In this document: positions 1,300-60,900 of the stretch, one piece after another | How the letters are laid out: every line of letters starts with the position of its first letter | How positions within the stretch are numbered: position 1 is the stretch's first letter | Source: Chiloscyllium plagiosum | Lineage: Eukaryota | Reading direction: 5' to 3' | Assembly (NCBI RefSeq): GCF_004010195.1 | Contig: NC_057718.1 | Coordinates: 80,665,187-80,729,186, forward strand | Length of the DNA stretch: 64,000 nucleotides | Notes under the pieces: model-generated | Told to the model about the DNA's origin: nothing | Seen by the model: only the letters and a program-made list of their open reading frames with translations | The model's database searches: none | Translations under genes and position numbers: made by a program

Positions 1300-2157
1300 G
1301 AGTTAAAAATCACACAACGCCAGGTTACAGTCCTGAATTGAATTGAATTGAATTTATTGTCACGTGTACCAAGGCACAGTGAAAAGCTTTTCTTGCAAGC
1401 AATACAGGCAGATCACAGAGTTAAGTAGCATAGATAGTATATAATAGGTAAACAGCTGCAAACATAAAAACAAGTACAAGAAAATATTAAGAGTTTGTGA
1501 GTCCATTCAGTATTCTAACAACAGTAGGTTAGAAACTGTTGTGAAACCGGCTGGTGCATGTATACAAGCTTCTATACCTTCTCCCCGATGGTAGAGGTTG
1601 TAGAAAAACATTGCCAGGGTGGGAGGGATCCAGGTTTGTTTAGAAGCATTAGCTTTCAGAGCGCTGCACCTTCATCAGGTGGAGTATCAGACACAATTTA
1701 TGGCGAAAGGTTACAGTGTCATACAGTGATATGTTGAGCAAACCTGGATTGTTAAGTCTTTTTTTGGATGCAGGTATCGGTTCATTAATATATAAATCCC
1801 AGAAATTCTTTTAAGTCACCTTCTTGAGATAACTTAAGGTTTATAACAAAAAGTGACAAATCAGCTCAGACAATGCATTAAAGGTGTGGGGTCAAAGTCT
1901 GTCTGTATCCCATGAACCAAAACCTACATTCTAAAAAATGAAGAATTTAATAATCCACGTTTGTTCAATACATCACTGTATGACACTAACCTTTTGCTAT
2001 AAATTCTGTGTCTTGTGACCTTATACTCCACAATCACCTGATGAAGGAGCTGCGCTCCAAAAGCTAGTGCTTCCAAATAAATCAGTTGGACTATAACCTG
2101 GAGTTATGTGATTTTTAACTTTGTCCACCATAGTCCAACAGTGGCTCCTCCACATCA
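1300..2157 (+). mobile_element. Penelope-derived non-coding element with inverted termini and hammerhead cores (family B), interrupted by a Rex1 3' fragment
   Basis: The left arm (1301-1333 plus 1631-1681) is the inverse of the right arm (~2035-2120). Cores at 1654-1678 (-) and 2038-2062 (+). Flanks are AAGCTCAAATTCA (1287-1299) and AAGCTCAAGTTCA (2158-2170). Confidence 0.8.
1334..1630 (-). mobile_element. Rex1/Babar LINE 3' end
   Basis: (TGAAT)n tail on the + strand; near-identical to the 3' end of the long Rex1 copy at 53128-53420. Confidence 0.85.
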
Positions 2158-3420
2158 AAGCTCAAGTTCAAGCTCACCTTTGAGGGAGAGGAGAAGATCA
2201 TAAAGTAGAAACTTCAATAAAAACATTAAACAATAGAATAGACAACTCAAATAATAAATAATCATGCTGTTGTGAAATATGAAGCACGTTATTTTGTCAT
2301 TTTCCTCGAACACTTATTATTTAGGAATTTCAGCTTTTGAGGAAAAAAATTACAATTACATTTTCAAAGTACGCTTCAAATAATTTTTGGATGAAAGATC
2401 AGTATAATTACCCAATAATACACCTTGTAAAATATTGAGTGTAAAGTGACAGACCATATTCAACAAGGATCATATACCACTGCCCAAAAGTGAGGCTGGA
2501 TGTTGTACATGCAGGAGCTAGTGTGTTTAGGAGCCGGTGAAGGGGTTAACAGCACTGAAGCTGACAACAAATCAGGAAACCAACTCCAATCTACTGCCTT
2601 CTGCATTTAATTGTAATACATTAGGTTGTGAGAGGCAGATTGTTAATTTTAAACTTTAATCATTCATTAAGAAGGATACTAACATGGACCTTGGTATTTA
2701 ACTATGGGTGTCCAAGTTCCTCAATTTTCCTTGGGCTTGTCACTGCCAGTGCCAAAGATGCAGCAACAATTGAGTAACCCTGCAGAAATTACAAGCATTA
2801 AGTTCCCATAAGTACTGAAATGCATGGCTATTTTCTTACCTAATTGGTTAAAAAAAGACTTTTGCTTAATATTTGTTCTCAAAGGTTGCTTTTCTTGTAA
2901 CTACTCTGGAATTTATTTGCAGTACTTTAGGATTGCTTTCTTTATTTTGGAAGTTTGTGCGTCTGATATCCACTTCCATCAGGTCAGCATGAGTCCTACT
3001 TATACTGTATTTACGTGGGTATCAAATTACAGCTAAGCTGATCGGCAGAAGCAAGAGCAACAAGAACAACACTAACATTTGCCCTAGCACAGCATCAGAA
3101 AGAACAGCAGTAGCTCTTCTCTTCAAACCTGATGCTCAACAGGAGAGATGATGAGGAGCTGGGCTGTTCACAGAATGCAAAATGTCGACGTATGCTGAAC
3201 ATATAGTCAACGTAGATACAGCTTCCTGAACCTATTGGAATAATGGTGTTTCAATCTGTATCATGTGATGGCAGATATTAGCAGTCTGCCAGAAGACCTG
3301 ATGCTAAGTAAACCGAATGGGCATGGGCAAGGACGAGAGGATATGACTACTATTGAGGCAGGTATAGTGATCCAGGAGATGATGCTTGATATGGCAAATT
3401 CCCAATGAGGCTCGCCAATT

Positions 3421-8399: not shown

Positions 8400-8494
8400 A
8401 AACAAAAACAGAAATTGCTGGAAAAGCTCAGCAGGGAGCATTTGTGCAGTGGAGTCGAGTTAACCTTTCAGGTCTAGTGACCTTTCCTCAGAAC
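8400..8494 (-). mobile_element. Short Penelope-derived element with hammerhead core
   Basis: Reverse complement GTT-CTGAGGA-A-AGGTC-ACTA-GACCT-GAAA-GGTTA, followed by the family tail CTGCTGAGCTTTTCCAGCAATTTCTGTTTTTG. Confidence 0.7.
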
Positions 8495-9859: not shown

Positions 9860-9924
9860 CCTCACAGATACCTAGACTGAAAACACAAAAGCAATTAGAA
9901 TCAAAGAAACAAATAGATTTGGTT

Positions 9925-9960
9925 ATTTCTGAAGAAGGGCTTATGCCCGAAACGTCGATT
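9925..9960 (+). ncRNA. Minimal type I hammerhead ribozyme motif
   Basis: CTGAAGA (9929-9935), A, GGGC-TTAT-GCCC, GAAA (9949-9952), then CGTC with palindromic ACGT and a GUC cleavage triplet. Stem I is weak in this copy. Confidence 0.75.
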
Positions 9961-10057
9961 CTCCTGTTCCCTGGATGCTGCCTGACCTGCTGCGCTTTTC
10001 CAGCAACACATTTTCAGCTCTGATCTCCAGCATCTGCAGACCTCACTTTCTCCTCAA
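9928..10057 (+). mobile_element. 130-bp hammerhead-bearing Penelope-derived monomer (family A) with 13-bp TSD
   Basis: AGATTTGGTTATT occurs at 9915-9927 and 10058-10070; the element ends CTCCAGCATCTGCAGACCTCACTTTCTCCT. Confidence 0.88.
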
Positions 10058-10109
10058 AGATTTGGTTATTGTACTAAGATACTTTTTAAAACATTATCCC
10101 AAGTATTTC

Positions 10110-12079: not shown

Positions 12080-13143
12080 AGTTTTGATAAGATTTGGAGC
12101 TCAGGTTGAGGTTCTGGATGTAGGTTTGCTCATTGAGCTGGAAGGTACATTTTCAGACGTTTCGTCAGCATAGTAGGTAACATCTTCAGTGAGCATCTGG
12201 ACAAAGTACTGCTGATGATACCTGTTTTCTATTTATATGTTTGGGTTTCTTTGGGTTGGTGATGTCATTTTCGGTTCTTTTTCTCAGAAGGTGGTAAATT
12301 GAGTCCAAGTCAATCTGTTTGTTGATCAGATTCCGGTTGGAATGCCATGCTTATAGGAATTCTCGTGCGTGTCTCTGTTTGGCTTGTCCTAGGATGGATG
12401 TGTTGTCCCAGTCGAAGTGGTGTCCTTCCTCATCCATATGTGAGGATACTAGTGAGAGAGGGTCATGTCGTTTTGTGGCTAGTTGATGTTCATGTATCCT
12501 GGTGGCTAGTTTTCTGCCTGTTTGTACAATGTAGTGTTTGTTACTGCCTTTGCATGGTATTTTGTAAATGACATTAGTTTTGCTCTGTGTAGGGTCTTTC
12601 AAGTTCATTAGCTGATGTTTTAGTGTTTTGGTGGGTTTGTGGGCTACCATGATGCCAAGGGGTCTGAGTAGTCTGGTAGTCATTTCCGAGATGTCTTTGA
12701 TGTAGGGGAGAGTGGCTAGGGTTTCTGGACGTGTTTTGTTGCTTGTTTGGGTTTGTTGCTGAGAAATCTGCAGACTGTGTTCATTGGGTACCCATTCTTT
12801 TTGAATACACTATATAGGTGATTTTCTTCTGCTTTGCATAGTTCCTCTGTGCTGCAGTGTGTGGTGGCTCGTTGGAATAAAGTTTTGATGCAGCTTCATT
12901 TGTGGATGTTGGGGTGATTGGTTCTGTAGTTCAATATTTGGCCAATATGTGTTTTCCTGAAGGTGCTGGTTTGAAGTTCCCCATTGGCTGTTCGCTCTAC
13001 TGCGACATTTAGGAAGGCAGTTTGTTGTTGTTTTCCTCCTCTTTGGTGAATTTTATGCCAGTAAGGGTATTATTGATGGTCTTGAAGATTTCCTCTAATT
13101 TGTTTCGTTCAGTGATGATGAAGGTGTCATCCATGTAGCGGAC
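12080..13143 (-). mobile_element. Penelope-like (Poseidon-type) retroelement: RT C-terminus, GIY-YIG endonuclease and pLTR
   Basis: RYMDDTFII...IKFTKEEENNNKLP (RT) and NVIYKIPCKGSNKHYIVQTGRKLATRIHEHQ (GIY-YIG); frameshifted. Confidence 0.92.
12153..12192 (-). ncRNA. Hammerhead ribozyme motif in the Penelope pLTR
   Basis: Reverse complement TCA-CTGAAGA-TGTTACCTACTATGCTGAC-GAAA-CGTC-TGA; TCA/TGA can form stem I, and stem II is imperfect. Confidence 0.72.
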
Positions 13144-13355
13144 CCTTGCAAGAACAGTATCGTCAAGCTCGTGGACCTTTGCCTTACCACTCACTTCACC
13201 TTCAACAACAAAACTTACAGACAAACTAATGGAACACCCATGGGATCTTTCATATCAAGGTTCGTGGCGGAGACAGTAATGCAGAGACTTGAACAAATAG
13301 CTCTGCCAACCATCCAACCCAAACTTTGGGTCCACTACGTGGATGACCCTTTCGT
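13144..13355 (+). mobile_element. Inverted upstream RT segment of the same Penelope element
   Basis: DLCLTTHFTFNNKTYRQTNGTPMGS...KLWVHYVDD (RT motifs B-C) lies on the opposite strand, abutting the minus-strand part. Confidence 0.88.
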
Positions 13356-13920: not shown

Positions 13921-14645
13921 ATGAATTAGAATTAGCTTTATTATCACATGTACTCAATGAGTACAGTGAAAAGTTTCAGTCACCACTTGCAACACCATCT
14001 TCGGTACAAAGGTACCTAGGTACAGATTCTTAAGTGCAAATTCTTAGGAGGAGAAAATACAGAGAAATAAAAGGTCCAGCATTACAGATCATAGGATTAT
14101 ATTAGAAAAATAAAGAAATAAAAAGTTCAAAATAACAGCCCTTCCAACCCAGTCCACAATGACACCTAGCCTCTAGTCTGTGCCGGGTTCCACCTCAAAG
14201 CTGAGAGACCGCTCTGGAATCATCTTGAGGCCAGAAGTCACATTGAGACCATGCCAAGCCACTGGAGACTGTTGCTTTGGGCCACCAAGACACCGCCATG
14301 ATTGGCCAAGAGACCGCCACTCCAGGCCACCAGGAGACCATCGGATCACGCCAGACCAGGAGACCACCACACTTTGCCACTGAGAGACGATCGTGTCATG
14401 TCAGGCCGGGGACCCCCACACTGGACCAAGAGACAACCACTCCAGGCCAGGAGCCTGCCACGCTGAGCCAGGAGACAACCACAGCGAGCAAAGAGATCAC
14501 CAAGCTGGGTCCATGCTGAGGCCAGGAGTTCAGGGATATTTCTGAGAAAAAAGAGGGCAAAAAACAAAAAAGTGGGGAACAAAGAAAAGAAGCAGATGGA
14601 GCAGACAAACTATAGCTGAAGAGTCCTACTCCACTGTCATTTTGG
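13921..14645 (-). mobile_element. Non-coding element with Rex1-like ends and internal GC-rich short repeats
   Basis: Reverse complement starts CCAAAATGACAGTGGAGTAGGAC and ends TTTTCACTGTAC...GTGATAATAAAGCTAATTCTAATTC; CCAGGAGAC(C/A)ACCAC-like units recur at ~14300-14530. Confidence 0.65.
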
Positions 14646-14653
14646 ATATGAAT

Positions 14654-14884
14654 AATGTGGAGGAGCTGATGTTAAGACTGGAGTGTACAAAGTTAAAAAT
14701 CACACAACACCAGGTTATAGTCCAACAGATTTATTTGGAAGCACTAGCTTTCACAGCACTGCTCCTTCATCAGGTAGCAGTTGTCACAACTCTGTCACAG
14801 CTACCTGAGGAAGGAGCAGTGCTCCGAAAGTGCTTCCAAATAAACCTGTTAGACTATAACCTGGTGTTGTGTGATTTTTAACTC
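14654..14884 (-). mobile_element. Fold-back hammerhead-bearing Penelope-derived element (family B) with 10-bp TSD
   Basis: Inverted arms at ~14691-14778 and ~14800-14883; cores at 14745-14773 (-) and 14805-14829 (+); GGATATGAAT at 14644-14653 and 14885-14894. Confidence 0.88.
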
Positions 14885-15663
14885 GGATATGAATGGTAGA
14901 ATTGGATGTTGTTGGTTGCTGGTCTGATATCTGCTTATTCCTGAGGTGGTGTTCAGAGGAATGTAATTCCCTTGGCACATGCTGCTCCTGTGGTAACCGT
15001 TACCATTGATCCATTGCCATCGCTGGAGAATGGTGAACCTCAAGGGACTGATGATTATTCTGTCCTCTCTGTAGGTAGTGTTATCATATCTTCCTGATCA
15101 GCTACCTGCAGTGGAGACACAACTTCTTTCGTGGTATGTAGATGTCTGTGATTATGATGTTGTATCTTGTGCTTCACATTCGCCACAGATGATCAAGTTA
15201 ACAACTGCTGAATACCGGTATCACATTGTCACGTGGACTGGTTCTTATTGAGAGGGTTGAACATTTGCACTCTGACTGGTAATCCAATGCCCAGCTCTCA
15301 CAGTAATTTGGCAGCTTTATCAAAGTACATGTTGGTTCTGTCATTTCACCTTGATTTTGTCACTTAAGTCTGTTACTACTTCTGACATTAGTAGTTTTTG
15401 TTTGCTATTGGAAGAGTAAGTTGGATCTGGCATGACACTAGCCTTTAAATAGACTATTTCCCATGCTTTCAATAGGTATGTTACTTCACTAAAGAATTGA
15501 CTTGTAGAAGTCTGCGCTACATTTGCTAATTTTTTTTTACACTCCCTTTGGTGATCTTCACTACTGCCTGATTTCAATCAGAATAGTGTGGAAATGATGT
15601 ATAGTTTTGAATTTCCCAATCCTTTATGAAATGGCTAAGCTCTTCATTCATGGTATGGGGACC

Positions 15664-16257
15664 GAAATGGCTTAATAAGCCACTGAGTTGTATTCATCGT
15701 TATGAAGTCTCAACAAGGAAATGAAACTTGATGGCCCACCTAGATACATTGGAAAAGACAATGGCAGAAACAATTCTGAAAACCCTGCCCTATCCTCCTT
15801 ATTAACATATGGAGGCTTGTGTCAAAATTGGGAGAACTGACCAGTCAAGCAACAGCCTGATATGGTCATACTCAGAAAATCATACCTTCCATGCAATGTC
15901 CCAGATACCGCCATCTCTATTCCTGGATTGGTCCTGTACCACCAGCAGGACAGACACAGCAGAGATGGCTGCATTGTGGTATACAGTCATTGGGAGTCCT
16001 CAACATTGACTCAATGTTCCATGAAGTCTCATGGCTTCAACTTAAATATAGGTAAGGAAACTTTCGGCTGATTACCATGTACCACCCTCCCTTAGCTGAT
16101 AAATCAGTAGTCCTCCATGCTGAACAGCACTTGGAGGAAGCAATAAGCATGACAAGGGCATAAAATGAACTCTGTTGGGGATTTCAATAGCTCGGCAGCA
16201 GCAATACTGATTGGGCTAGTCAGGTCCTCAATGATGTAGCCGCCAGACTGTTTCTAT
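15664..16257 (+). repeat. 594-bp inverted duplicate of 33583-34176 (LINE 5' UTR/endonuclease segment)
   Basis: Colinear reverse complement of equal length with about 15 substitutions counted by eye; ORFs 15862-16071 (+) and 33769-33978 (-) are near-identical. Confidence 0.92.
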
Positions 16258-16300
16258 TTTTAGCTCTGATCTCCAGCATCTGCAGTCCTCACTTTCTCCT
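16258..16300 (+). mobile_element. 3' terminal fragment of a family A hammerhead element
   Basis: TTTTAGCTCTGATCTCCAGCATCTGCAGTCCTCACTTTCTCCT matches the 3' end of 9928-10057. Confidence 0.85.
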
Positions 16301-18170: not shown

Positions 18171-18182
18171 CCATTTTCATTC

Positions 18183-18411
18183 AAAAACAGAAATTGTTGG
18201 AGAAACTCTGGTTTAACAGCATTTGTGGACAAAAGTCAAAGTTAATATTTTGAGTCCAGTGATCCTTTTCGGAAACATTCTGAAGAATGGTCACTGGACT
18301 CAATGTTAAATCTTTCTTTCCAAATATACTGCCAGACCTGATGAGTTTCTCTGCCAATTTCTGTTTTGATTTCAGATTTACAGCATCCACAGTTCTTTGT
18401 TATATTTCCTG
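18183..18411 (+). mobile_element. Older fold-back Penelope-derived element with decayed hammerhead cores
   Basis: Imperfect inverted arms centred near 18275; CTGAAGAATGGTCACTGGACTC at 18280; ATTTTCATTC at 18173-18182 and 18412-18421. Confidence 0.7.
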
Positions 18412-19374
18412 ATTTTCATTCTTTAAGTAGCCAGCTGTTATAAAACTTTGAAAATCCATGCAATTTCAGCTCACTATTTCTCACATTGCATTTCAAGTGA
18501 TGTGCAATAACGGTCTGGGACTGCACTCAAACTTACAGCAAAGATTGAGGCCACATGACAATGGGAAGCCAGCCAGTACACTGAGTACAATTGTATTTTT
18601 CCAAAGAACAAGAGCTTTTATAGCTTTTTGACAAACCTTTTTTAGTCATAGAGTTAGCAGCTGAAGAAAGAACTTATGTAATTGTTATGTAAGCTGACAA
18701 AATCAAATTCTTTTGTTTAGAAATGGCACAGAAATGCATTGTGCAGCTTTAGCAGATATAAAATGGGCACCTAAGAATCCAACATCGCAAGCACCATTTA
18801 CCACTAAAAGAGCATCTATATTAACGTCTGCTCAATAGGCATCCAAGATGGGCACCTGAAACTTATTAAATTAGGTTTATTGTACATATCAATCAATGGC
18901 TGAAATGCTTTTTCCAGACTGATTGGCAAATGACAACAACTTACAGTATCCTTTTCCTCCTTCACCCACAAAACAAACAGTACTGAACATGTTACTCTGC
19001 CACAGTAATCTGCCACCCAATACAAGTGCCCAGTAGCTCCATAGTCCTATTAATGCCATGTCCAAGCTTGGACACTCTTGGACTAGCAATTTTTTAAAGG
19101 CGAAGATAATTTGTAAACTGGACTTTCGGTAAGTCTGGGTATTTCTGCAGACTGGGAGACAGGCCCCAGCAGAGAGGGTGAGGGAGGTGGAGGCCAGGCT
19201 TGAGAGGCCAGGGGTTTGAGTTAACATGGGTGATCCATCAATCTGCAGAGTGGTGCTGTCCAAAGGCAGCCCATAACTTTTTTTCAAACACCAACACTCC
19301 CAGTGAAGCCTGCAGGCTACCCATTTGGTGTGGAGTTCCTCTAGCCACCAATAAAATAGCAGCGAGGGCAAGTA

Positions 19375-37879: not shown

Positions 37880-38345
37880 ATTTTTTCTTCTTCTTTTAAG
37901 AAAAGACACCTGAGTGGCCAGTGACAAGCAGTGCCCTTCTTTTCAAGGACAAAGCCAATGTGAACGAAAAAGTTAAAAGGAGGGTAGGAATTAAATCAAA
38001 ATAGAGTTGGAGGGGGAAGTAAGACACTTCACGTCTCATGGTGCCCACCTCTCCACCTCTGGTCACTCTCGCCACCACAACCCTCCCTACCAACAGCCAC
38101 TCGAACCTGCGATTGCGGAGGTGTGGATTCCTGAGCAATGGTTGCCTAATGACAGCCTGTTGGAGGGTAGGCATGACGTGTGTTGACCATGTTCCAGACA
38201 TTGATCAGGTCCTGGTAAAAGACAGGCAGCGTCCTGAGGGAGGCCTCCAAACCATCACAGTCGATAAACAGGAGCTGCATATTGCATGAGGTTACGCACC
38301 TGGCAGACATTTTTGTGTTGAAGTATAATGCTACCACCAGTCCGT
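37880..38345 (-). mobile_element. Tx1/L1-like LINE fragments including a 3' UTR
   Basis: LRTLPVFYQDLINVWNMV; 37905-38015 is homologous to 38800-38925. Confidence 0.7.
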
Positions 38346-38370
38346 TATGGATTTTTAAAAAAATAAACCT

Positions 38371-38470
38371 GTTTAGTCATGGTATGATCTACCTGCAGTA
38401 TAGGTGGAACCTGAACCTGGGTCCTCAGTCTCAGAGGCAGGGGTGCTATCTCTGTGCCACAAGAGCCCCA
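38371..38470 (-). mobile_element. Isolated tRNA-derived SINE head
   Basis: Reverse complement GGGGCTCTTGTGGCACAGAGATAGCACCCCTGCCTCTGAGACTGAGGACCCAGGTTCAGGTTCC. Confidence 0.6.
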
Positions 38471-38479
38471 ACTCCTTTA

Positions 38480-39592: not shown

Positions 39593-40824
39593 GTGACAAA
39601 GAAGATTGATGAGGGCAGAGCAGTAGATGTGATCTATATGGACTTCAGTAAGGCGTCCGACAAGGTTCCCCATGGGAGACTGATTAGCAAGGTTAGATCT
39701 CATGGAATACAGGGAGAACTAGCCATTTGGATATAGAACTGGCTCAAAGGTAGAAGACAGAGGGTGGTGGTGGAGGGTTGTTTTTCAGACTGGAGGCCTG
39801 TGACCAGTGGAGTGCCACAAGTATAGGTGCTGGGTCCTCTACTATTTGTCATTTACATAAATGATTTGGACGCGAGCATAAGAAGTATAGTTAGTAAGTT
39901 TGCAGATGACACCAAAATTGGAGGTGTAGTGGACAGCGAAGAATGTTACCTCAGATTACAACAGGATCTGGACCAAATGGGCCAATGGGCTGAGAAGTGG
40001 CAGATGGAGTTTAATTCAGATAAATGCGAGGTGCTGCATTTTGGGAAAGCAAATCTTAGCAGGACTTATACACTTAATGGTAAGGTCCTGGGGAGTGTTG
40101 CTGAACAAAGAGACCTTGGATGGAAGATTCATAGCTCCTTGAAAATGGAGTCGCAGGTAGATAGGATAGTGGAGAAAGTGTTTGGAAACCAAAAATGCTT
40201 TCCTTTATTGGTCAGAGTATTGAGTACAGGAGTTGGGAGGTCATGTTGTGGCTGTACAGGACATTGGTTAGGCCACTGTTGGAATATTGCATGCAATTCT
40301 GGTCTCCTTCCTATCGAAAAGATGCTGTGAAACTTGAAAGGGTTCAGAAAAGATTTACAAGGATGTTGCCAGGGTTGGAGTATTTGAGCCATAGGGAGAG
40401 GCTGAACAGGTTGGGGCTGTTTTCCCTGGAGCATCGGAGGCTGAGGGGTGACCTTATAGAAGTTTACAAAATTATGAGGGGCATGGATAGGATAAATAGG
40501 CAAAGTCTTTTCCCTGGGGTCGGGGAATCCAGAACTCGAGGGCATAGGTTTAGGGTGGGAGGGGAAAGATATAAAAGAGATCTACGTGGCAACTTTTTCA
40601 TGCAGAGGGTGGTAAGTATATGGAATGAGCTGCCAGAGGAAGTGGTGGAGGCTGGTACAATTACAACATTTAAGAGGCATTTGGATGGGTATATGAATAG
40701 GAAGGGTTTGGAGGGATATGGGCCGGGTGCTGGCAGGTGGGACTAGATTGGGTTGGGATATCTGGTCAGCATGGACAGGTTGGACCAAAGGGTCTGTTTC
40801 CATGTACATCTCTATTACTCTATG
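39593..40824 (+). mobile_element. Relatively young 5'-truncated CR1 LINE
   Basis: LGPLLFVIYINDL...KFADDTK...WQMEFNSDKCEVLHFG; LYRTLVRPLLEYC...LERVQKRFTRML...WNELPEEVV; ends CTCTATTACTCTATG. Confidence 0.96.
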
Positions 40825-49365: not shown

Positions 49366-49466
49366 AGTTCTGAAGAAGGGTCTCTGGACTCAAAGCATTA
49401 ACTCTACTTTCTTTCCTCAGAAGCTGCCAGAGCTGCTGAGTTTCTCCAACAATTTCTGTCTTTGTA
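49366..49466 (+). mobile_element. Short Penelope-derived element with mutated hammerhead core
   Basis: CTGAAGA (49370)-A-GGGTC-TCTG-GACTC-AAAG..., then GCTGCCAGAGCTGCTGAGTTTCTCCAACAATTTCTG. Confidence 0.7.
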
Positions 49467-50821
49467 CCGACTTCTCAAGCTTTTCCATCCAGCCTTTCCC
49501 TGTGATCATCATCTCTGATTTCCCACCACACATGCTGTACTCGTTCCACAATTTCTCTGTTACTTCTATTATATGTTTACTCCCCATTTCCTTCCAGAAT
49601 GTCTTCACACTGTCAAATTACCTCTATTTCAGTCACTCTCACTTGACCTGTCTGTCGGCAGTTGCAGACTTAAACTGCTGAGTTCCTATCTGATGAGTAG
49701 CCAGCTTTCCAAAGTGGATGTTTCAAAAGTCAGGAAACCTAAAGCAACAAATCAAAACATGCTTTATAATGCCATTCAAACCAATTTTCAATTACCTGAT
49801 CGTAAATTCACCTTCCTATTTCACATGCCTTGGTGAATCTCAAGATTAATCTGTTATGAATGAGAAAATGTGAAGCTTTTCCAATTTAACATATAGTGAC
49901 TTATGACATGGCAGAAATTGATGCATCTTGCACTCATATGCAAATATTTTTCAAACTTGTGACATGTACTTTATTTTGAACCACAGCATTTAAACATTGT
50001 GTAATTTTAAATACAGAATTGTAACACTGTGCTGCTTCATGTTCTTTTCTCAGGCATAGAATTTCTGATCAAAGCATTGAATTGACCTTAAACCAATTTG
50101 ATTTTTTTTTCCATCATTTATTTGTACTTGAAGGATTAAATTGTCCTGAAATTCCCTTGATGGTTTTTGTAATTTAGGCAGAATGTTATCAGGATTCTTG
50201 GAGCATTTTTATTGTTTTATTTTCTTTCTGAGAGTTTTACTGATTTTCCACTGACGTTCAGCAATAGATCAGGAGAATGTTTGTTGAACTTTAGGGTATA
50301 AAGGTAGTTTCAAGCATGTGATCTACCTTAGGATTCATATTTCTAAATGCAAAATGTGCTCTGTTCACTGTCTGATTATATTTGTTTAGAATAAGCCTTG
50401 ATGGAATAATCAAACATATTGAATCATCCATTTTGATTTTTCAATTTCTAAAGAGCATAATGCAGCAATGCAATTTCTTAGAAACCTTGCAGATTCAATT
50501 GTGAAAAATATATTTGACCTATTGACTTCGTGGTAATCTTTCAGTAACTAAGGAAAATAATAAATATCTAAATGCCAGATCTTGCTGGCATAAACAAGTT
50601 ACTTGGAGGTAAGCTTGCACTACCAATCACAAGTAAAAGCTTTTCATCTAATTTACATCTCCCTTTATAACAATCCTTTAGAATCATTACTCTTGTAAGA
50701 ACTTACAATAGAGCTGAATCTTACATTTCTTTGGATAGGTACATGTTACGTAGGGGTTTTTGGAGGGTCTTACATTCTAGAACCTAACAGGTTTACTCAC
50801 CATGTCTTACTAAACTCACTT

Positions 50822-50946
50822 TCTGAAGAAGGGCTTATGCCCAAAACGTCGGTTCTTCTGTTCCTTGGATGCTGCCTGACCTGCTGCGCTTTTCCAGCAA
50901 CACATTTTCAGCTCTGATCTCCAGCATCTGCAGTCTTCAATTTCTC
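50822..50946 (+). mobile_element. Family A hammerhead monomer with 7-bp TSD
   Basis: Near-identical to 9928-10057; core CTGAAGAAGGGCTTATGCCC-AAAA-CGTC; CTCACTT at 50815-50821 and 50947-50953. Confidence 0.88.
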
Positions 50947-51169
50947 CTCACTTCATTAACTGCCTACCTCTTCCTTAGGGTGCCCTGTGCACAATTCCAG
51001 CCCCATCTTATCATACGCTGTTATCAGAATAACTCACTAATACTGTGATATGCCAGAATTAGTCAGCATCCTTTTGTCCAAGAAATCTTTAGAAGACTTG
51101 TGTACCGAGATAAGCACTGTAAGTCAGGAGTTGCCATGTATTGTTCATGATGTTTGCTCCAGACATAGC

Positions 51170-51945: not shown

Positions 51946-51964
51946 GAGAGAAAGAGAGAGAGAG

Positions 51965-53127
51965 AGAAACTTTTATTTGTCGTTTCTACCATATACAATT
52001 GATACAGTAAAAACGAGACAGTGTTCCTCCAGTACCAAGGGTGCCACATTGACAGCACAAGCTACAGCATTGTACAGAGCATAAGTGCCAAAGAAGTGCA
52101 AAACAAGTGTAACACAAGTTATAGTGTAACAAGAATGATGAATAATAGACATTTTTATTGCAGCAATACGAAAGAATTTCAGAGGAGCGAGAGTCCAATT
52201 ATACTATGTTAAGGAGCCTCATGGCTTGGGGGAAGAAATTGTTGCACAGTCTGACCGTGAGACACCGTATGCTCCAGTATCTTCTGCCAGATGGCAGGAG
52301 GGAGATGACGTTGAGTGAGGGGTGTGTGGAGTCTCCCACAATGCTCTTAGCCATTCAGATGCAGTGTGTTGTGTAAATGTCTATAAAGGAGGGAAGAGAG
52401 ACTCCGATGATCTTCTTAGCTGTCCTCATTATCTGTTGTAGCGTCTTATGATCCGAGACGGTGCAATTCCCGAACGAGGCAGTGATGCAGCAGCTCAGGA
52501 TACTCTTAATGAGCCCTCTGTAGAAAGTGGTGAGGTTGGTGGGAGGTGGGCTTTTCTCAGCCTGTGCTGAAAGTAGAGATGCTGCTGGGCTTTCTTGGCT
52601 GTGGAGCTGACATTGAGGGTCCAGTTGAGATTCTCTGCCAGGTATATGCCAAGAAATTTGGTGCTGTTCACCATCTCCAAGGGGGAGCCGTTGATGTCCA
52701 GCAGAGAGTGGTCGCTCCGTGCCCTCCTGAAGTCAATAATTATCTCTTTCATCTTGTCCACGTTCAGAGACAGGTTACTGGCTCTGCACCAGTCCGTTAG
52801 CTGCTGCACCCCCTCCCTGTATGCTGACTCATCGTTCCTGCTGATGATACCTACTGCAGTCATATCACCAGTGAACTTGACGATGTGATTTGACCTGTGC
52901 ATCACTGCACAGTTGTGTGTCAGCAGAGTGAACAGCAGTTGATTGAGCAAACAGCCCTTGGGGGGGGGCTGCTCAGTGTGATGGTGTTGGAGATGCTGTT
53001 CCTGATCCAAAATGACTGAGGTTTCCCAGTCAGGAAGTCCAGGATCCAGTTACACAGGGAGGTGTTTAGGCCCAGCGGATTCAGCTTTCCAATCAGGTGC
53101 TGAGGAATGGTAGTGTTAAATGCAGAA
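51965..53127 (-). mobile_element. Rex1/Babar LINE (outer copy), 3' part
   Basis: SAFNTTIPQHLIGKL...LCNWILDFLTGKPQ; LLFTLLTHNC...LSLNVDKMKEIIIDFRR...KFLGIYL...KKAQQHLYF. Confidence 0.92.
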
Positions 53128-56077
53128 TTGAATTGAATTGAATGTATTGTCACACGTAAGGCACAGTGAAAAGCTTTGTCTTGTGAGTAATACGGGCAGA
53201 TCATATAGTTAAGTAGCATAGATAAGTAAATAATAGGTAAACAGTAGCAAAAACAAAAACACAGGTACAGATGAATGTTAAGTGTTTGTGAGTCCATTCA
53301 GTATTCTAACAACAGTAGGGTAGAAACTGTTACAAAACCTGCTGATGCGTGTGTTCAGGCTTCTGTACCTTCTTACTGATAGTAGAGGTTCTAGAAAAGC
53401 ATTGCTAAGGTGGGTGGGCCTTTGAGAATGCTGGCGGCCTTTCCTTGACAGCGGGCCTGGTAGATGGATTCCATAAATGGGAGGTTGGCCTTTGTGATTG
53501 TCTGGGCCGAGTGCACCACTCTCTGCAACTGTCTCCAATCGTGAATGGTGCAGTTGCCAAACCATGTAGTGATACATCCGGACAGAATGTTCTCGATGGC
53601 ACACCTATTAAAGTTGGCAAGGATATTCGCCATTATGCCAAATTTCCTCAGCTGCCTGAGGAAGAAGAGACATTGTTGGGCCTTTGTAACCAGTACGTCC
53701 ACATGAAAAATCCAAGAAAGCTTGTTGTGGATGACTACTTCAGGAGCTTGACACTTTCCACTCATTCCACCTTTGTTCTGTTAATGTGTACGGTGGGCAT
53801 GAGTAACATCCCGCCAAAAGTCAATAATGAGTTCCTTGGTTTTGCTGGCATTCAGATCTAGATTGTTCTCAGTGCACCATTTTTCCAAGCCTTCCACCTC
53901 CTGTCTGTGGTTTGTTTCGTCACCATCTGAGATTCAACCGACTGTGGTGGTGTCATCAGCAAACTTGTAAATGGCATTAGTCTGGTATTTGGCAACACAG
54001 TCATGGGTACACAGTGAGTACTGTACGGGGCTGAGTATGCACCCCTGGGGGGCTCCAGTGTTGAGTGTTAGTGAGGACGAAATGTTGACCCCAACCTTCA
54101 CTGATTGTGGCCTGTGGGTCAGGAAACTGAGGATCTCGTTGCAGAGAGTGGGACTTAGTCCGAGATCACTAAGTTTAGTCATCAATCTCAAGGGGATAAT
54201 AGTGTTAAAGGCTGAATTGTAGTCAATGAGTAGGATTCTTACATAGCTGTTATTGGTGTCAAAGTGTTCTAGGGAGGAATGAAGGGCAAGTGATATGGCA
54301 CCTGACATGGATCTATTGGTCCAATAGGCAAATTGAAGTGTGCCAAGAGGAGTGGGAAAGCTGGAGTTGATTAATGCCATGACCAGCCTTTCAAAGCACT
54401 TCATGACCACCGAAGTTAGGGCCACTGGTGGGTAATCATTGAGACATGCTGCATGAGCCTTCTTAGGTACAGGGATGATGTTGACCCTCTTGAAATAGAC
54501 AGGGACAGTGACCTGCTGCAGGGAGAGGTTGAAGATGTCCGAGAAGACCTGTGCCAGTTGATCTGCACGTGTTCTGAGTGCACAGCCTGGTACTCCATCT
54601 GGTCCCATCACTTTCCTTGGATTCCTTGGAAAACTGATCTGACCTCTGATGCAGTGACTGTTGGGATAGGTTCGTCAAGACTTGTTAGAATAGGTGTTAC
54701 CTCTCCGCCGAAATTCTGCTCAAAGAGAGCACAGAAGGCGTTGAGACGATCTGGGAGAGATATGTCATTGTCTGCTATCTTGCACTGTCTCTTTTTAGAA
54801 CCTGTGATGTCATTCATTCCTTGCCATAGTTGCCGGGTGTCTGTCTGGGTCTCTAGTTTGGATCAGGATTGATCCTTGGCTGTCTTAATGGCTCTGCGAA
54901 AGTCATACTTGTATTCCTTATATTTGAGTGGGTCTCCTGATCTAAAGGCCTCACGCCTGGTTTTTAGCAAGTTTTGTATGTCCTGATTCATTCAGGGTTT
55001 CCTGTTGGGGAACACCCGGATTGACTTCCTCAGTATGTAGTCCTCCACACACTTGCTGATAAAGTCTGTGACAGTGGTGGCATACTCGTCCAACGTACTG
55101 TTTGAACATGGCCCAATCAGCCAATTCCAGACAGCACCAGAGTTGATCCTCTGCTTCTTCCGACCAGACCTGGACCTGTATATCTGCGAGGGGGTCTCCT
55201 GCTTGAGCTTTTGCCTGTAAGCCGGGAGAAGAGATACGGCATTGTAGTCAGAGTTCCCAAAATGAGGGTAGGAGATGGAGCGGTAGCATCCTTCACAGTG
55301 GTGTAGCAGTGGGCCCCTGGGTGGGGCAGGTAATGTTCTGGTGGTACTTGGGCAACACCTTCCTTAGAATGGCTTGATTGAAGTTGCCAGTTACAATAAA
55401 CAGTGCTTCAGGGTGTTCCATCTCTCCAGGGTATTAGAGGTGGAATACAGCACATCTAGAGCTTCTTGAACCTTTGCTTGTGGCGGTATGTACACAGTAG
55501 TTAGTATAGCAGTGGTAAATTCCCATGGTAAATAAAAGGGGCGGCATTTGATGGTGAGGAATTCAAGGTTTGGGAAGCAATGGCTGCCCAGTCTTGCAGT
55601 GTCCATGCACCACAAGTTGTTGATTAAAAAGCAAACCCCTCCACCCTTTGTCTTACCCGAGGACGCTGTATGGTCCATATGATGGATAGAAAAACCATCA
55701 GCCTGAAGTGCGCAGTCGGGAGTGGATGGGTTGAACCAGGTTTCCGTGAAGCAAAGTGCGCAGCAATCCCGCAGTTCATGCTGGAAGCTGAGCCGCGTTC
55801 TGAGTTTGCCCATCTTGGTCTCCAGCGATTGTACATTTGCTAAGAGTAAGCTAGGAAGGGGGGATTTTGAAACCGCAGAGTCTCAGTCTTACGAGAAGGC
55901 CGACATGCTTACCCCACTTCCTCACAGGTTTCTTACATTTGAATGGTCCGGTGGTCTAGTGGAGTGGACTCTGACTGCTTCTAGTTAAGTGATCCTTCCT
56001 AGGAGCCTTGGAACAGGTAGGTTGCAGTTTAGTGTATTTTTGCAGAAGGTCTGCTTTGGACCCAATGTTGCAGGTAA
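53128..56077 (-). mobile_element. Near full-length Rex1/Babar LINE (endonuclease plus RT, frameshifted) nested in another Rex1
   Basis: LCFTETWF...GGGVCFLIN...VYIPP (APE); GPDGVPG...[13 protein letters not shown]...[11 protein letters not shown]...[11 protein letters not shown]...KFADDTT; (ATTCA)n tail; CAGAA at 53123-53127 and 56078-56082. Confidence 0.95.
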
Positions 56078-56935
56078 CAGAACTAAAGTCTATGAACCTC
56101 TGGCGTAGGTGTCCTTTTCTTCCAGGTGGGTGAGGGCCAATGGAGGTTGGTGGAAATGGTATCATCTGTTGAGCTCAACATTAGAGAGGTGCTGGAAAAG
56201 CACAGCAGGTCAGGCAGCATCCGAGGACCAGGAAAATTGACGTTTCGGGCAAAAGTCCTACATCAGAAATGTCATTCAGATTCCTGATGAAGGGCTTTTG
56301 CCTGAAACGTTGATTTTCCTACTCCTCGGATGCTGCCTGACCTGCTATGCTTTTCCAGTACCACTCTAATCTTGACTCTAATCTCCAGCATCTGCAGTAC
56401 CCACTTCTGCATATCATCTGTTGAGCTGTTAGGTCGATATGCGAACTGCAGGGTGTGCAGGGGACAGCAGAGTCTTAATAAGCCTCATCATGAGCCTCTC
56501 TAAGCACTTCATGATGATGGGTGTCAGCGCAGAAGGGCAGTAGTCATTCAGACAGGATGCAGAAGACTTCTTCAGTACGGGAACGATGGTAGTGACCTTG
56601 AAGCACATTGGAACTGTGGCGCAGCTCAGGGAGATGTTGAAAATGTCTTTGAAAACTTCTGCAGTATGTTAGAGTGTCCTCTGAGGACTCTGCCAGGGAT
56701 ATTTTCCGGTCCAGCAACCTTATGTGGCTTTCCTCACATTGGCCGTGGTAAGACACAGCACCTGGTCATCGGATGGGGGTGTGTGCTTCCTCACTGCCAC
56801 ATCATTTTGTGCCTCAAACTGTGCATAAAAGTTGTTCAACTCATCCAGGAGGGAGGCATCATGAGCACAAGCAGGTGATGCTGTTCTGTGGTTGGTGATG
56901 ACCTGAATGCCTTTCCACATGATCCATCCATCAAG
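56078..56935 (-). mobile_element. Rex1/Babar LINE (outer copy), upstream part
   Basis: MWKGIQVIT...LLDELNNFYAQFE; FIDFSS joins in frame to AFNT at 53127 once the insert is removed. Confidence 0.88.
56176..56411 (+). mobile_element. Fold-back hammerhead-bearing Penelope-derived element with 16-bp TSD
   Basis: Inverted arms at ~56180-56270 and ~56280-56370; core CTGATGA-A-GGGC-TTTT-GCCT-GAAA-CGTT at 56284-56311; TATCATCTGTTGAGCT at 56160-56175 and 56412-56427. Confidence 0.9.
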
Positions 56936-57744: not shown

Positions 57745-57875
57745 GTGCAAGAGCCATTTTGGACTTGAAATGTTAATTCTGCTTCTCTTGCTACGGATGC
57801 TACCAGATTTTCTGCGCCTTTCCAGCACTTTATGTTTTTATTTCAGATCTCCAGCATTCGTAGTATTTTGCTTGT
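57745..57875 (+). mobile_element. Decayed Penelope-derived short element
   Basis: GGACTTGAAATGTTAA...GATGCTACCAGA...TTTCCAGCAC...TCAGATCTCCAGCATTCGTAG; the 5' half of the core is lost. Confidence 0.6.
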
Positions 57876-57989
57876 ATTTAAATGTACAGCTTATTGGAAG
57901 ATTGATATGTGTTGGTGTTAGTTTCATGCACTCTCTAATCTTCCAACAGAAGGAGAATCTAGCCAATAGTAACTGAGTATGAATACTGA

Positions 57990-60900
57990 GGAAAGCCTAA
58001 GATTCTGAAGAGAGAATGTAAGAAATTAGGCAGGAGGTTAAGACAGTAGTTCCTCAAGGATAGCAATATCTGGACAACTACCAGTGCCACATGCAAGTGA
58101 GAGTAGGAACAGGAGGATAGAGCAGATGAATGCATGACTGAGGAACTGGTGCAGGGGGCTGGGATTCACATTTTTGAATCATTGGAATCTCTTATGGGAC
58201 AGAAGTGACCTGTTTCAGAAGGATGTTTTGCACCTGAATTGGAAGGGGACCAATATCCTAGGGAGGAGATTTGCTAGTGTTATTCAAGAGGGTTTAAACA
58301 TGTAAGTGGAAGGCAGCCCAAAGAGATAAAGACAGGTCTGAGGCTGGTGCAGTTGCAATGAGGAGCAAATCAAATAGTCTGGGCAGGGCAAGAGCAAGGC
58401 AAAGAATGAGGTAAGAATGATAAATTAAACTGCATTTATTTCAATGCAAGAGGCCTGACAGGTAAGACATTTTTGGGATATCATTGCTGTTACAGAAATG
58501 TGGCTCAGGGAAGGGCAGAACTGGCACCTTAATGTTCCAGGGTATAGATACGACAGAACGATAGAAAGGGGGACAAGGGAGGAGGAGAAGTGTTGTTTTT
58601 GCTTAGGGATAATATGATGGCTGTACTTAGGGAGGATATTCTTGAGAGTAGGTCCACTGAAGTTATTTGGGTGGACTGAAAAATAAGAAAGCGATAATCA
58701 TCTTCTTGCGGTTCTCCTATAGACCACCGAATAGTCAGCAGGAAATTGAGACCTCAGATATCTGTAAGAATGATAGGGTTGTAATGGTAGGGGATTTTAA
58801 CTTTCCAAACATAGACTGGAACTGCATCGTGTTAAGGGCTTAGATAGAGAAGAATTTGTTAATATTTAGTATGTGGATGAGCCTACTTGAGAAGGAGTGA
58901 AATTTGACCTTCTCTTGGGAAATAAGGCAGGACAAGAGACCAAGGTGTCTGTGGGGGAGCACTTTTTGGGGCCTATGATCATAATTCTATTAGTTTTAAA
59001 ATAGTAATGGAAAAGGATAGACCTGATCTATAGCATTAAAGTTCTGAATTGGAGTAAAGCCAATTTTGATGGTATGAAGCAAGAATTTTCAAAACTGGAT
59101 TTGGAGAGACAATGTGCAAGTAAAAGGGGTGGTTGCAAAGTGGGATAATGAAATAACAAACATTCAGAGTCAGTATGTTCCTATTAGTGTGAAGGGCAAA
59201 GCTAGTGGGTGTAGGGAATGCTGGATGACTAGAGAATTTGAGGCTTTGGTCAAGAAAAAGGAGGAGAATGGCCGTGCAGACTGCTTGGATTCAGTTAATT
59301 CCTTGAGGAGTATAAGGACGGTGGAAGTAGAATTGAGGGAAATCAGGAGGATAAAAGGGTACATAAAATTTCTTTGGCAAATGGGGTTATGAAGCTTCCA
59401 TAGACATCCTACAAGTACATTAAGATCAACAAGGCTGTCTATGTGTGGAATTGCAGGAGATGGAGACACTGAACAAGTATTTTGCATCAGTATTTTGTGG
59501 AGAAGGATATGGAAGCAAGAGCACGTAGGGAAATAAACAGTGATTTCGTGAAAAGAATCCATATTACAACTGAGAAGGGGCTAGATGTCATAAAATACAT
59601 AAAGATAGATAATCCCTGGAACCTGATCAGGTGTTTCCCAGAACTTTCTGGGAAGCTAGGGAAGAGATTGCTGATCCTCTTGCTGAGATATTTGCATCAC
59701 CAACAGCCACAGGTGATGTGCCAGAAGACTGGAGATTGGCTAATGTGGTGCCATTTTTAAGGAAGTGACAAGGAAAAGCCAAGGAATTACAGAACAGTGT
59801 ACCTTACGTCAGCAGTGTGTAGGTTGTTGGAGAAGATTCTGAGGGTTAGCCTTTACATGCATTTGGAAAGGCAAGGACAAATTAGGGATAATCAGCATGG
59901 TATTGTGCATGGGAAATCATGACTCACTAACTTCACTGAAATTTTTTAATACATGTTAAAAAATGATTGTTGAAGGCAGAGCGGTGGATGTTGTGTATAT
60001 GGACTTCGGCAAAGTATTTGATAGGGTTCTGCATGGTAGATAGGTTGCAAGTTTAGATCACATGGAATCCAAGGGGAGCTAGCCATTTCGATACAAAATT
60101 GGCTAGAAGGTAGAAGGAGAAAGTGAGGACTGCAGATGCTGGAGATCAGAGCTGAAAATATGAAGCTGGAAAAGCGCAGCAGATCAGGCAGCATCGAAGG
60201 ACCAGGAGAATCGACGTTTCGGGCATGAACCCTTCTTCAGGAATGAGGAGAGTGTGCCAAGCAGGCTAAGATATCTTAGCCTGCTTGGCACACTCTCCTC
60301 ATTCCTGAAGAAGGACTCATACCTGAAACGTCGATTCTCCTGCTCCTTAGAAGGTAGAAGACAGAGTATAGTGGTGGGCAGTTGATTTTTAAGTTGAACG
60401 CTTGTGACCAGCAGTGTGCTACAAGGATTGGTGCTGGGTCCACGACTTTTCATCATTTATATAAATGTTTTGGATGTGAATATAGGAGGTATGGTTAGTA
60501 AGATTGCAGATGACATCAAAATTAGTGGCGTGGTAGACAACAAAGAAGGTTATCTCAGAGTGCAATAGAACCTTGATCAGATGGGCCAGTGGGCTGAGGA
60601 ATGGCAGATGGAGTTTAATGTCGATGAATGAGAGATGTTGCATTTTAGTAAGGAAAATGAGTTATTGGTAGGGACTTGGGGAGTGTTGCTAAACAAAGAG
60701 ACCGAGGGGTGCAGGTGCATAGTTCCTTGAAAGTGGTGTTGCAAGTAGACATAATGATGAAGAAGGCATTTGGCATGCTTGTTTTTATTGGTTAGTGTGG
60801 GGGTTAAGGAGTTGGGACATCATGTTATGGCCATACAGGACATTGATGAGGCTATTTTTAGGATACTGTGTTCAATTCTGGTCTCCCTGCTATAGGAAGA

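Follow-up and report, generated by a model that had tools for sequence, protein, structure and literature searches.

Minimal hammerhead ribozymes in the terminal repeats of metazoan Penelope-like elements (PLEs) were described by Cervera and De la Pena in 2014 (PMC4209133), so the motif kind has been in print since then; in the consulted part of that account they occur in fishes, coelacanth, amphibians and reptiles, and cleave poorly in vitro. Insertion units of endonuclease-bearing PLEs are described as comprising partial tandems, a neighbouring inverted copy truncated at its 5′ end, and a tail of 30-40 bp (Craig et al. 2021, PMC8557442; PMC11167929), and a unit defined by its ribozyme has been proposed for retrozymes and, tentatively, for PLEs. 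The preprint of Li, Clavereau and Pollet (2026, 10.64898/2026.07.22.740005) sampled one cartilaginous fish and reports solo monomers. The window analysed here (the whole stretch of 64,000 nucleotides of Chiloscyllium plagiosum DNA) contains short inserts which are probably 3′-terminal copies of endonuclease-bearing PLEs of at least three families. Their motif class is the minimal type I hammerhead of PLEs, and with their abundance they add to a kind already known rather than forming a new mobile system.

Self-BLAST of the window assigned repeats of three families to all nine places at which the sequence-only reading had listed hammerhead-bearing inserts: family A at 1298-2157 and 14654-14884, family B at 9929-10057, 50822-50946, 56176-56411 and 60117-60347, and family C at 8400-8494, 18183-18406 and 49366-49466. 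While the repeats are real, the count of "about nine" intact or nearly intact cores was too generous, as inspection by eye of the 14 family arms extending into the ribozyme region showed only 4 to be intact (9929+, 56284+, 60240-, 8491-). The other ten are altered by a G12 to A change (2039+, 50822+), stem II mismatches (1678-, 14773-, 60305+), a 4-nt deletion in helix III (14805+) or loss of the core (both arms of 18183-18406, 49370+, 56267-). Nor are all inserts single units, since five of the nine are head-to-head inverted pairs.

Both members of family A are such pairs. The right arm of 1298..2157 (about 1912-2157, + strand) has its core at 2039 and a 35-nt tail at its outer end, while the left arm (- strand, 1298-1333 plus about 1631-1911, core at 1678-1654 with a single stem II mismatch) is split by an unrelated nested repeat (1334-1630); the target site duplication (TSD, 1287-1299 / 2158-2170) is 13 bp long and 12/13 identical. 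In 14654..14884 the arms (14654-14781, -; 14797-14884, +) both have damaged cores, the 37-nt tail is present on the left arm only, and the 10-bp TSD (14644-14653 / 14885-14894) reads GGATATGAAT. Family B includes two single short units on the + strand. The first, 9929..10057, starts 1 nt before its core and is flanked by a direct repeat (9916-9928 / 10058-10070) that is partly element tail (AAGATTTG); because other copies continue with those letters, 3′ microhomology and TSD are both possible readings of its 7 inner bases. The second, 50822..50946, carries the G12 to A change (CCCAAAACG) and a 7-bp TSD (CTCACTT, 50815-50821 / 50947-50953). In the family B pair 56176..56411 (arms 56175-56270, -, and 56280-56375, +), the right arm, with an intact core that includes a G.U pair, continues to 56411 as a 36-nt tail, and the TSD is 16 bp (56160-56175 / 56412-56427). 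The pair 60117..60347 has no spacer between its arms (60194-60272 / 60273-60351); the left arm (-) runs out to 60117 and, on its other side, extends 33 nt upstream of its core, the right arm, in which stem II is decayed, ends about 45 nt beyond the first base of the core, and the TSD is 13 bp (60104-60116 / 60348-60360). Within family C, the single unit 8400..8494 (-) has its intact core at 8491-8466 (stem II AGGUC/GACCU, GAAA, GGUUAAC, UC), the pair 18183..18406 has a 39-nt tail on the right arm only, a 10-bp TSD (18173-18182 / 18412-18421) and mutated CTGANGA and GAAA in both arms, and the single short unit 49366..49466 (+) belongs to a sub-lineage without G12, with CUCAAAG instead of the expected CGAAA; no TSD was found at 8400-8494 or 49366-49466.

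The flanking direct repeats previously noted at seven loci are borne out as TSDs of 7-16 bp at 7/9 loci (in order 13, 13, 10, 10, 7, 16 and 13 bp), and in all five pairs just one of the two sides has a tail or an arm that is much longer, the tails in the window being 35-39 nt long. Copies sampled elsewhere repeat this pattern of an inverted 5′-truncated arm and a one-sided tail, the inverted arms ending between +76 and +95 and the direct ones no earlier than +124, and the arm-arm junctions vary from copy to copy. Only single units or head-to-head pairs are seen in the window, which has no head-to-tail arrays of these units (nine Tandem Repeats Finder rows, none on units). The core-less fragments that had been reported are present, at 16255..16300 (+, a family B 3′ end), 23799-23864 (-) and 57782-57857 (+). 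Absent from the first list was an older, fourth PLE remnant at 12151..12611 (-), in which a coding fragment of the GIY-YIG region at 12611-12354, matching five PLE proteins with 27.6-54.8% identity and a lowest E of 2.2e-06, is followed, 162 nt past the end of its frame, by a hammerhead-like core (CUGAAGA ... GAAACGUC) at 12189-12151.

The loose pattern CTGANGA-N6-30-GAAA was found 17 times in the window, against 6.68 ± 2.55 expected (17 or more in 0/100 shuffles); eight of these matches lie in the listed families, two overlap at 12151-12189(-), and the seven outside the families and the remnant look like noise. A hammerhead search was positive with our own descriptor (core, GAAA, a stem II no shorter than 4 bp, self-complementary helix III, UH), which gave 4 matches in the window compared to a mean of 0.05 and a maximum of 1 in 100 dinucleotide shuffles, and 49 matches in about 261 kb of sampled DNA. 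It was negative with Rfam, as none of the hammerhead families (types I, II and III, HH9, HH10) reached the gathering score in the window, and none was among the 15 matches obtained down to E 10, of which seven are miRNA look-alikes because the inverted pairs are hairpin-shaped. As had been observed from the letters, stem II differs between the families and remains paired (GGGC/GCCC, GGAGC/GCUCC, AGGUC/GACCU), and three of its pairs are altered on both sides: pair 10.1-11.1 (G-C/A-U), the third (G-C/A-U) and the fourth (C-G/G-C/U-A). Families A and B close stem II with G-C at 10.1-11.1, where family C and two related types have A-U or G.U, and an unpaired A between A9 and 10.1 is found in 21/21 aligned sequences from the three families and their relatives. 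The palindromic tetramer after GAA, followed by H, is also there: positions 15.2-16.2 are self-complementary (ACGU, AGCU or AUAU), and family B reads ACGU-C, family A AGCU-A, two related types AUAU-C, and family C, in the unit at 8491, GGUUAAC-UC. Together, the descriptor counts, the constant A and the self-complementary 15.2-16.2 agree with the proposed assignment to the minimal type I hammerheads of PLEs. Lunse, Weinberg and Breaker (2017, in RNA Biology) reportedly described small PLE-associated hammerhead variants that have a short palindromic stem III and cleave as dimers, the features that the sequence-only reading had cited.

We searched the animal's own genome with the Pfam GIY-YIG model, which gave 14,403 first-look candidates, of which 150 were scored and 47 matched. 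Seventeen distinct places were fetched, and in 10 of them the GIY-YIG match is followed on the same strand, 50-720 nt downstream, by a family-B-like segment; five of the seven own-genome frames scanned score 25.3-27.4 bits (cut-off 22.6). Locus L050 has a frame of 429 aa (GIY-YIG 25.6 bits) with the core beginning 155 nt behind it, and the letters of the 3′ UTR between frame and core match the upstream part of long family-B copies; at L074 and L075, where the frames have 893 and 684 aa, the distance to the core is 159 nt. The core of family B, the commonest of the families, lies 155-159 nt behind GIY-YIG-bearing ORFs in this genome. The L050 frame has 36 longer relatives at E <= 1e-10, and precomputed Pfam assignments give RVT_1 on 26 and GIY-YIG on 11 of these. 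A relative of the approximately 800-aa class (P0004) has RVT_1 at residues 291-479 (29.4 bits, just below the cut-off of 29.6) and GIY-YIG at 708-751, and its search against the own genome gave 162,137 first-look candidates, with 57 matches passing E <= 1e-20 and spanning residues 91-800 in open frame. By these domain matches, the full-length relatives of the family-B-linked ORFs carry a reverse transcriptase (RT) and, C-terminal to it, a GIY-YIG domain in one ORF, and the source elements of family B are predicted to do the same. No full-length element with a 5′ end was found: 5′ truncation affects the best three copies with an ORF as well as another three stretches read upstream, and runs of N abut many copies. 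The hammerhead regions linked directly to an ORF are those of family B and the old remnant; family C has a 3′ block in common with family B in the self-BLAST. The known minimal type I hammerhead motif sits in the terminal, pLTR-type region of these elements, and the linkage to GIY-YIG ORFs, together with the PLE-type inverted arms, one-sided tail and TSDs, indicates that the copies were made by PLE machinery, as the sequence-only reading had proposed.

The 5′ ends of the short copies pile up just before the core. We counted them in 83 family-B arms (a non-random sample, as 29 loci were drawn with a short copy as query) against an ORF-linked reference, with positions given relative to the core's first C, and 61/83 start at -18 to +11, 39/83 at -6 to 0, while 16 reach more than 100 nt upstream; the boundaries of family B copies are thus non-random. 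When reads and contigs are aligned to a long copy, depth rises 5-7-fold, and position 3687 of L076, which is -4 from the core, has loose ends with unlike flanks as well as inverted joints, in a DNA-type run too. For family C, 12 of the 20 fetched copies begin at the core and eight have an upstream extension in common. Family A has no pile-up at the core, as 37 of 39 genomic matches extend upstream of it by 10 nt or more, as far as the query goes. RNA read starts did not pile up at -4 in the about 2% of a poly-A single-cell run that was read, a library poorly suited to RNA ends; RNA depth tracks DNA copy number on both strands and 94% of the aligned reads enter unlike flanks, and the RNA signal over the copies looks like passive read-through.

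We propose that the PLE's own RT/GIY-YIG protein would make each copy by target-primed reverse transcription, with synthesis beginning at one of two or three neighbouring sites near the RNA 3′ end, which would leave a tail of 30-46 nt on one arm only. A staggered target cut would give the 7-16 bp TSDs, and frequent extension of both cut strands, a step we infer, would give the two head-to-head arms. As most family B and C copies stop about 4 nt before the core, giving units of approximately 100-135 bp, the template RNA may have a discrete 5′ end at that point, for which the simplest cause would be a transcription start inside the terminal repeat. If so, the stubs are solo terminal repeats that ordinary source copies of PLEs generate again and again, dead on arrival and unable to form families that propagate themselves. 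The conserved core and the co-variation of stem II between families suggest that the motif is maintained in the source elements, where it would function as a ribozyme.

Alternatively, the units of about 100-135 bp could be independent non-autonomous families, SINE- or retrozyme-like as the sequence-only reading had them, with their own transcribed masters and mobilised in trans by PLE proteins. Sharp boundaries at both ends, a very high copy number and a plan common to several families would fit this, and there are precedents in the non-autonomous PLE derivatives of Chlamys (PMC8557442) and the vertebrate non-LTR retrozymes (10.64898/2026.07.22.740005). However, in a family-B tree of 66 rows (50 short, 15 long, 1 between) and 129 columns, in which 40/63 inner branches are unresolved, the short/long label changes 13 times against 13.8 in shuffles (183/500 shuffles as low), and three well-supported groups unite long with short copies; being interleaved with the long, ORF-linked copies, the short ones form no lineages of their own. 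With everything upstream of -4 absent, the short units carry no upstream promoter, and their head is the hammerhead motif: the window has no tRNA-like gene (ARAGORN), no 5S or 7SL (Rfam) and no tandem arrays of units. Unit-length transcripts are likewise not indicated by the RNA reads, in what is a weak library for this purpose. We therefore regard independent families as unlikely, and the short family-B copies as most likely by-products of PLE lineages.

Far less probable still, and disfavoured here, is that self-cleavage of multimeric transcripts, possibly with circularisation, sets the copied unit. Core and pairing are conserved between otherwise unalignable families, and the self-complementary helix III fits dimer action (PMC4209133); co-folding of two copies is 3.8-7.8 kcal/mol better than two monomers for the four arms tried, though the predicted pairing covers core bases too. 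The cut site would however lie between +27 and +28, and at most 2/83 arms start near it (at +25 or +28), compared to the 61 that start around the first base of the core and so hold the whole ribozyme; in the one poly-A single-cell RNA run, read ends do not pile up at this site either, and a tie between cut site and copy ends is not borne out. One family-C lineage was amplified without the catalytic G12, which is absent from 19/20 sampled copies, always as CA and never TG, indicating that the source element already lacked it and still amplified. The lack of head-to-tail arrays in the window does not fit processing of multimers, and core mutants of an anole PLE insert normally in vitro (PMC11167929). 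Judged from the copies, cleavage has left no trace in the genome and appears dispensable for at least one amplified lineage. Fold-back (MITE-like) DNA transposons moved by a transposase that recognises the inverted arms would explain the five inverted repeats with flanking direct repeats, but not the variable TSD length (7-16 bp), the unequal arms with a one-sided tail, the differing junctions, or the fact that the same sequence is found both in single units and at RT/GIY-YIG ORFs, where it forms the 3′ end, and for practical purposes the ORF linkage refutes them.

Compared to published systems, the PLE-derived inserts share with the non-LTR retrozymes (PMC7229834; 10.64898/2026.07.22.740005) a type I hammerhead, the lack of coding sequence and an origin from PLE terminal regions. 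Retrozymes have head-to-tail units of about 170-400 bp, canonical hammerheads and circular RNAs (PMC7229834, the 2020 paper by Cervera and de la Pena; 10.64898/2026.07.22.740005), whereas the present units have minimal motifs and form no tandem arrays, and cleaved or circular RNA is not indicated by the weak library. From the anole Poseidon element of the 2024 Mobile DNA paper (PMC11167929), whose ORF starts inside the ribozyme, they differ in having the ribozyme 155-162 nt after the ORF. The PLE insertion units of PMC8557442 and PMC11167929 agree with ours in the strong 5′ truncation, the inverted truncated copy at the 5′ side, the tail at one end only, the hammerhead near the 3′ end, the GIY-YIG domain C-terminal behind the RT, and the N runs that adjoin copies and may be assembly gaps. 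Compared to those units, family B and family C have extremely short arms of about 45-135 bp, and the direct partial tandem (pLTR-ORF-pLTR) was seen neither in the window nor at six ORF-bearing loci, all of them 5′-truncated or N-interrupted. The closest match is to the metazoan PLE hammerheads of PMC4209133, which have the same CUGANGA ... GAAA core, no real helix III with self-complementary 15.2-16.2, a short helix I (2-4 pairs in the present copies), several families per genome with mostly single motifs outside full elements, and motif pairs on opposite strands a short distance apart. Stem II has 4-5 bp here compared to the 6-8 bp stressed for flatworm and fly motifs, and the A-U or G.U closing pair of family C and its relatives contrasts with the published G-C (PMC4209133). 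The accumulation of 5′ ends some 4 nt ahead of the core that families B and C show, of which the consulted part of PMC4209133 makes no mention, is a detail beyond the published PLE accounts consulted.

Self-comparison of the nine short-insert loci resolved them into three repeat families. Family A comprises 1298-2157 and 14654-14884; family B comprises 9929-10057, 50822-50946, 56176-56411 and 60117-60347, together with core-less fragments at 16255-16300, 23799-23864 and 57782-57857; and family C comprises 8400-8494, 18183-18406 and 49366-49466. Five of the nine loci consist of two inverted arms (each a copy of the unit) placed head-to-head and the remaining four of single units, while in all head-to-head pairs the tail is one-sided, with an extra 35-39 nt, or far greater length, at the outer end of one arm only. 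Similarly, among the sampled family B copies the ends of inverted arms lie at +76 to +95 (counted from the first C of the hammerhead core), and direct arms reach +124 or further. An unrelated repeat of ~295 bp (1334-1630, 84% alike to its other copy at 53125-53418) is nested in the left arm of the family A pair. The direct repeats of 7-16 bp that the sequence-only reading had reported at seven inserts were recovered, and these target site duplications (TSDs) bracket seven of the nine loci, i.e. 56160/56412 (16 bp), 60104/60348 (13 bp), 14644/14885 (10 bp), 18173/18412 (10 bp), 50815/50947 (7 bp), 1287/2158 (13 bp, 12/13 identical) and 9916/10058 (13 bp). For the last of these the same seven letters continue in other genomic copies (AAGATTTG-type end), and thus part of this "duplication" is the element's own tail matching the target.

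With regard to the ribozyme, a loose core pattern gave 17 matches in the window where 6.68 ± 2.55 were expected (none of 100 shuffles reached 17), eight of them inside families A, B and C. A stricter descriptor of our own making (core, stem II of at least four pairs, GAAA, a self-complementary helix III, then U and H) found four motifs in the window versus a mean of 0.05 in 100 shuffles, and therefore the hammerhead motif is real and not due to chance. The earlier count of about nine intact or nearly intact cores was too high, however, as only four of the 14 arms reaching the ribozyme region were intact when read by eye (9929+, 56284+, 60240- and 8491-); the other arms have a G12-to-A change, stem II mismatches or a 4-nt deletion at helix III, or have lost the core. 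Stem II pairs were read directly from the sequences, the MAFFT alignment having set family A one column out of register. Three of these pairs differ on both sides between families with pairing kept, as had been noticed previously, while only one-sided G.U changes were seen within family B. The two-sided changes lend support to structural selection on the hammerhead in the source elements, on a basis of only three or four independent designs. The family B core (e.g. 9948-9957) contains CpGs at C11.1-G12, C15.2-G16.2 and C17-G1.1, and its common variants GCCU-GAAA, CCCA-AAA and GAAAUGUC are the expected CpG decay products, from which it follows that inserted ribozymes die fast. Rfam searches of the window returned no hammerhead family, whether at the gathering threshold or with E relaxed to 10, and seven of the 15 weak matches were miRNA look-alikes located on hairpin-shaped pairs (60236-60309, 56236-56316, 14752-14826 and 18243-18308, all head-to-head; best E 0.0004). 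Such pairs mimic miRNA precursors and are a trap for annotation, making masking advisable.

The inserts belong to Penelope-like elements (PLE), the coding sequence of which is abundant in this 3.56 Gb genome: a GIY-YIG model gave 14,403 first-look candidates, and P0004, an 806-aa relative with RT and GIY-YIG on which RVT_1 scores slightly below the cut-off, gave 162,137 first-look candidates and 57 matches at E <= 1e-20. Of the 17 distinct GIY-YIG places that were retrieved, 10 have a family-B-like segment on the same strand further downstream. In one of the fetched stretches (L050), the core comes 155 nt after a 429-aa frame whose match to GIY-YIG exceeds the cut-off, and the sequence between them recurs as the upstream part of long family B copies; in two others (L074 and L075) the core lies 159 nt past the end of long open frames. 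Family C has a 3' block in common with family B, and family A has the insertion anatomy of the other families, ORF linkage being seen in family B. The window itself contains a fourth PLE remnant with coding sequence and core (12151-12611, minus strand), absent from the list of the sequence-only reading, in which a decayed hammerhead-like core, its stem II unlike that of the other families, lies 162 nt beyond an endonuclease-region coding match at 12611-12354 (-). Further PLE coding remnants are an N-terminal region at 2-168 (-) and an RT piece at 13135-13347 (+). The window also holds two LINE-type remnants, one with AP-endonuclease and RVT_1 frames (34659-40746, plus strand) and one with RVT_1 and an ALKBH8_N-like piece (52495-54674, minus strand).

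No RT or endonuclease domain was found beside five long family B copies, which are abutted by N runs. Such runs, of 117-3844 bases, directly abut PLE copies in L031, L032, L033, L035, L039/L049, L048 and L051, may be assembly gaps at inverted repeats, and conceal the RT region in several fetched loci. A full-length 5' end was found neither in the three best ORF copies nor in three additional upstream stretches, every one of which is truncated at its 5' side. At its start, the 5'-truncated insertion in L074 (reverse strand, 1072-1587) has a 120-bp piece of its own coding sequence present as four tandem copies (97-99% alike), and it lies within another abundant repeat with a 12-bp TSD (CCAACAAGTCCA). 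In a separate comparison (public runs X1-X14), 15-48% of the sampled words of L076:3300-3900, from a long family B copy, were present in contigs from runs labelled as four other organisms; several species labels thus appear to share this PLE family or close relatives of it.

Copy starts were measured against an ORF-linked reference, so that their positions were not forced by the query. Among 83 family B arms, 61 start between -18 and +11 (39 of these between -6 and 0), 16 extend upstream by over 100 nt, and five have a later start; part of this sample had been selected with a short query and part came from untargeted flanks, and the spike was present in both parts. Public reads and contigs placed on a long copy showed a genome-wide 5-7-fold rise in depth at -4, where loose ends with dissimilar flanks were also numerous, as were inverted joints. 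For family C, 12 of 20 fetched copies start at the core and eight have a common upstream extension, while a spike of starts at the core was absent from family A. The family A break at query position 232 was forced by the query's own arm junction, and match limits from short queries were set by query length; neither was used as boundary evidence. As the ribozyme cut site lies between +27 and +28, and only two of the 83 arms start at +25 or +28, the copy-start boundary differs from the cut site. The clustering of starts just ahead of the ribozyme, seen in families B and C, suggests that the RNA has a defined 5' end. Both families have the initiator-like letters TCA at -4, a motif too short to count as evidence and of use only as a lead. 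A splice acceptor, for which the pyrimidine tract and CAG before the unit start of family C would speak, was dropped as a general explanation since family B has no AG there.

The inserts had been proposed to form SINE- or retrozyme-like derivative families of their own. In a tree built on the unit common to short and long copies (66 rows, i.e. 50 short, 15 long and one between; 129 columns, low resolution), the two classes were mixed, with the long label changing 13 times versus 13.8 in shuffles, and three well-supported groups united short copies with a long or ORF-linked copy. Nothing in this low-resolution tree suggests that short copies breed true. Given this mixing, and the absence from the window of head-to-tail arrays of units and of tRNA-like heads, we regard the short copies, or stubs, as by-products to which ordinary PLE source copies have repeatedly given rise.

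Next we considered whether cleavage is needed. Of the 20 copies sampled (L054-L073) from the family C sub-lineage to which 49366-49466 belongs, 19 have an A in place of G12, always as CA and never as TG, and hence the loss was inherited from the source and is not later CpG decay. G12 is essential for hammerhead catalysis, and this sub-lineage has therefore multiplied without an active ribozyme. In RNA run X19, units were found on both strands at a depth tracking DNA copy number, and 94% of the reads extend into unlike flanks. The RNA ends anticipated at the NUH site did not pile up there or at -4 in this run, which is weak evidence either way as it is a poly-A single-cell library of which ~2% was read; run X20, the second of the two RNA runs, gave no placed reads.

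For families B and C, the template RNA would have a discrete 5' end ~4 nt before the core, which would most simply be a transcription start inside the terminal repeat; the Penelope pLTR of D. virilis is reported to harbour a TSS (PMC8557442). Reverse transcription beginning 90-135 nt downstream and running to the RNA 5' end would then yield a stub, and extension of both cut strands would yield the head-to-head form. We put forward, as a tentative and rather doubtful proposal, that stubs are a distinct product of PLE replication, arising from a start ~4 nt before the hammerhead and an internal RT start 90-135 nt downstream, with the hammerhead kept to mark or shape the RNA 5' end (folding, protein loading or translation) and not to cut. 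If true, each promoter-bearing PLE remnant sheds "strong-stop-like" solo-repeat cDNAs, which would explain why the genome has several-fold more stubs than longer copies.

Elements of this kind have been in print since 2014, when Cervera and De la Pena reported such motifs in their thousands per genome, most of them single, along with opposite-strand pairs (PMC4209133), and a 2026 preprint describes hammerhead repeats of PLE origin across the vertebrates, with one cartilaginous fish among them (10.64898/2026.07.22.740005); by title or abstract, no literature was found on these particular families in sharks. Extrapolated roughly from the window, the number of PLE terminal stubs in the genome is in the hundreds of thousands, each with a ribozyme motif that decays quickly (three CpGs in the family B core region); the find mainly illustrates the extent that a known process can reach. 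The 5'-end pile-up and the amplified lineage without G12 could be useful to PLE specialists. The motif matches the minimal hammerhead as described in PMC4209133 in having an extra nucleotide after A9, self-complementary 15.2-16.2 and a short helix I. PLE insertions are reported to be strongly 5'-truncated, often with a truncated copy in inverse orientation on the 5' side (Craig et al. 2021, PMC8557442), to bear a tail of 30-40 bp on just one end and to be troublesome in short-read assembly (PMC8557442), while the protein of an anole PLE acts on both DNA strands, cutting and extending each, and starts reverse transcription at two adjacent internal sites, the spacing of which matches the tail (2024 Mobile DNA, PMC11167929). 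On these reported features, the window loci agree with both accounts point by point, and the amplification of a lineage without the catalytic G12 agrees with the in vitro finding for the anole PLE that the hammerhead core, and thus cleavage, is unnecessary for insertion (PMC11167929).
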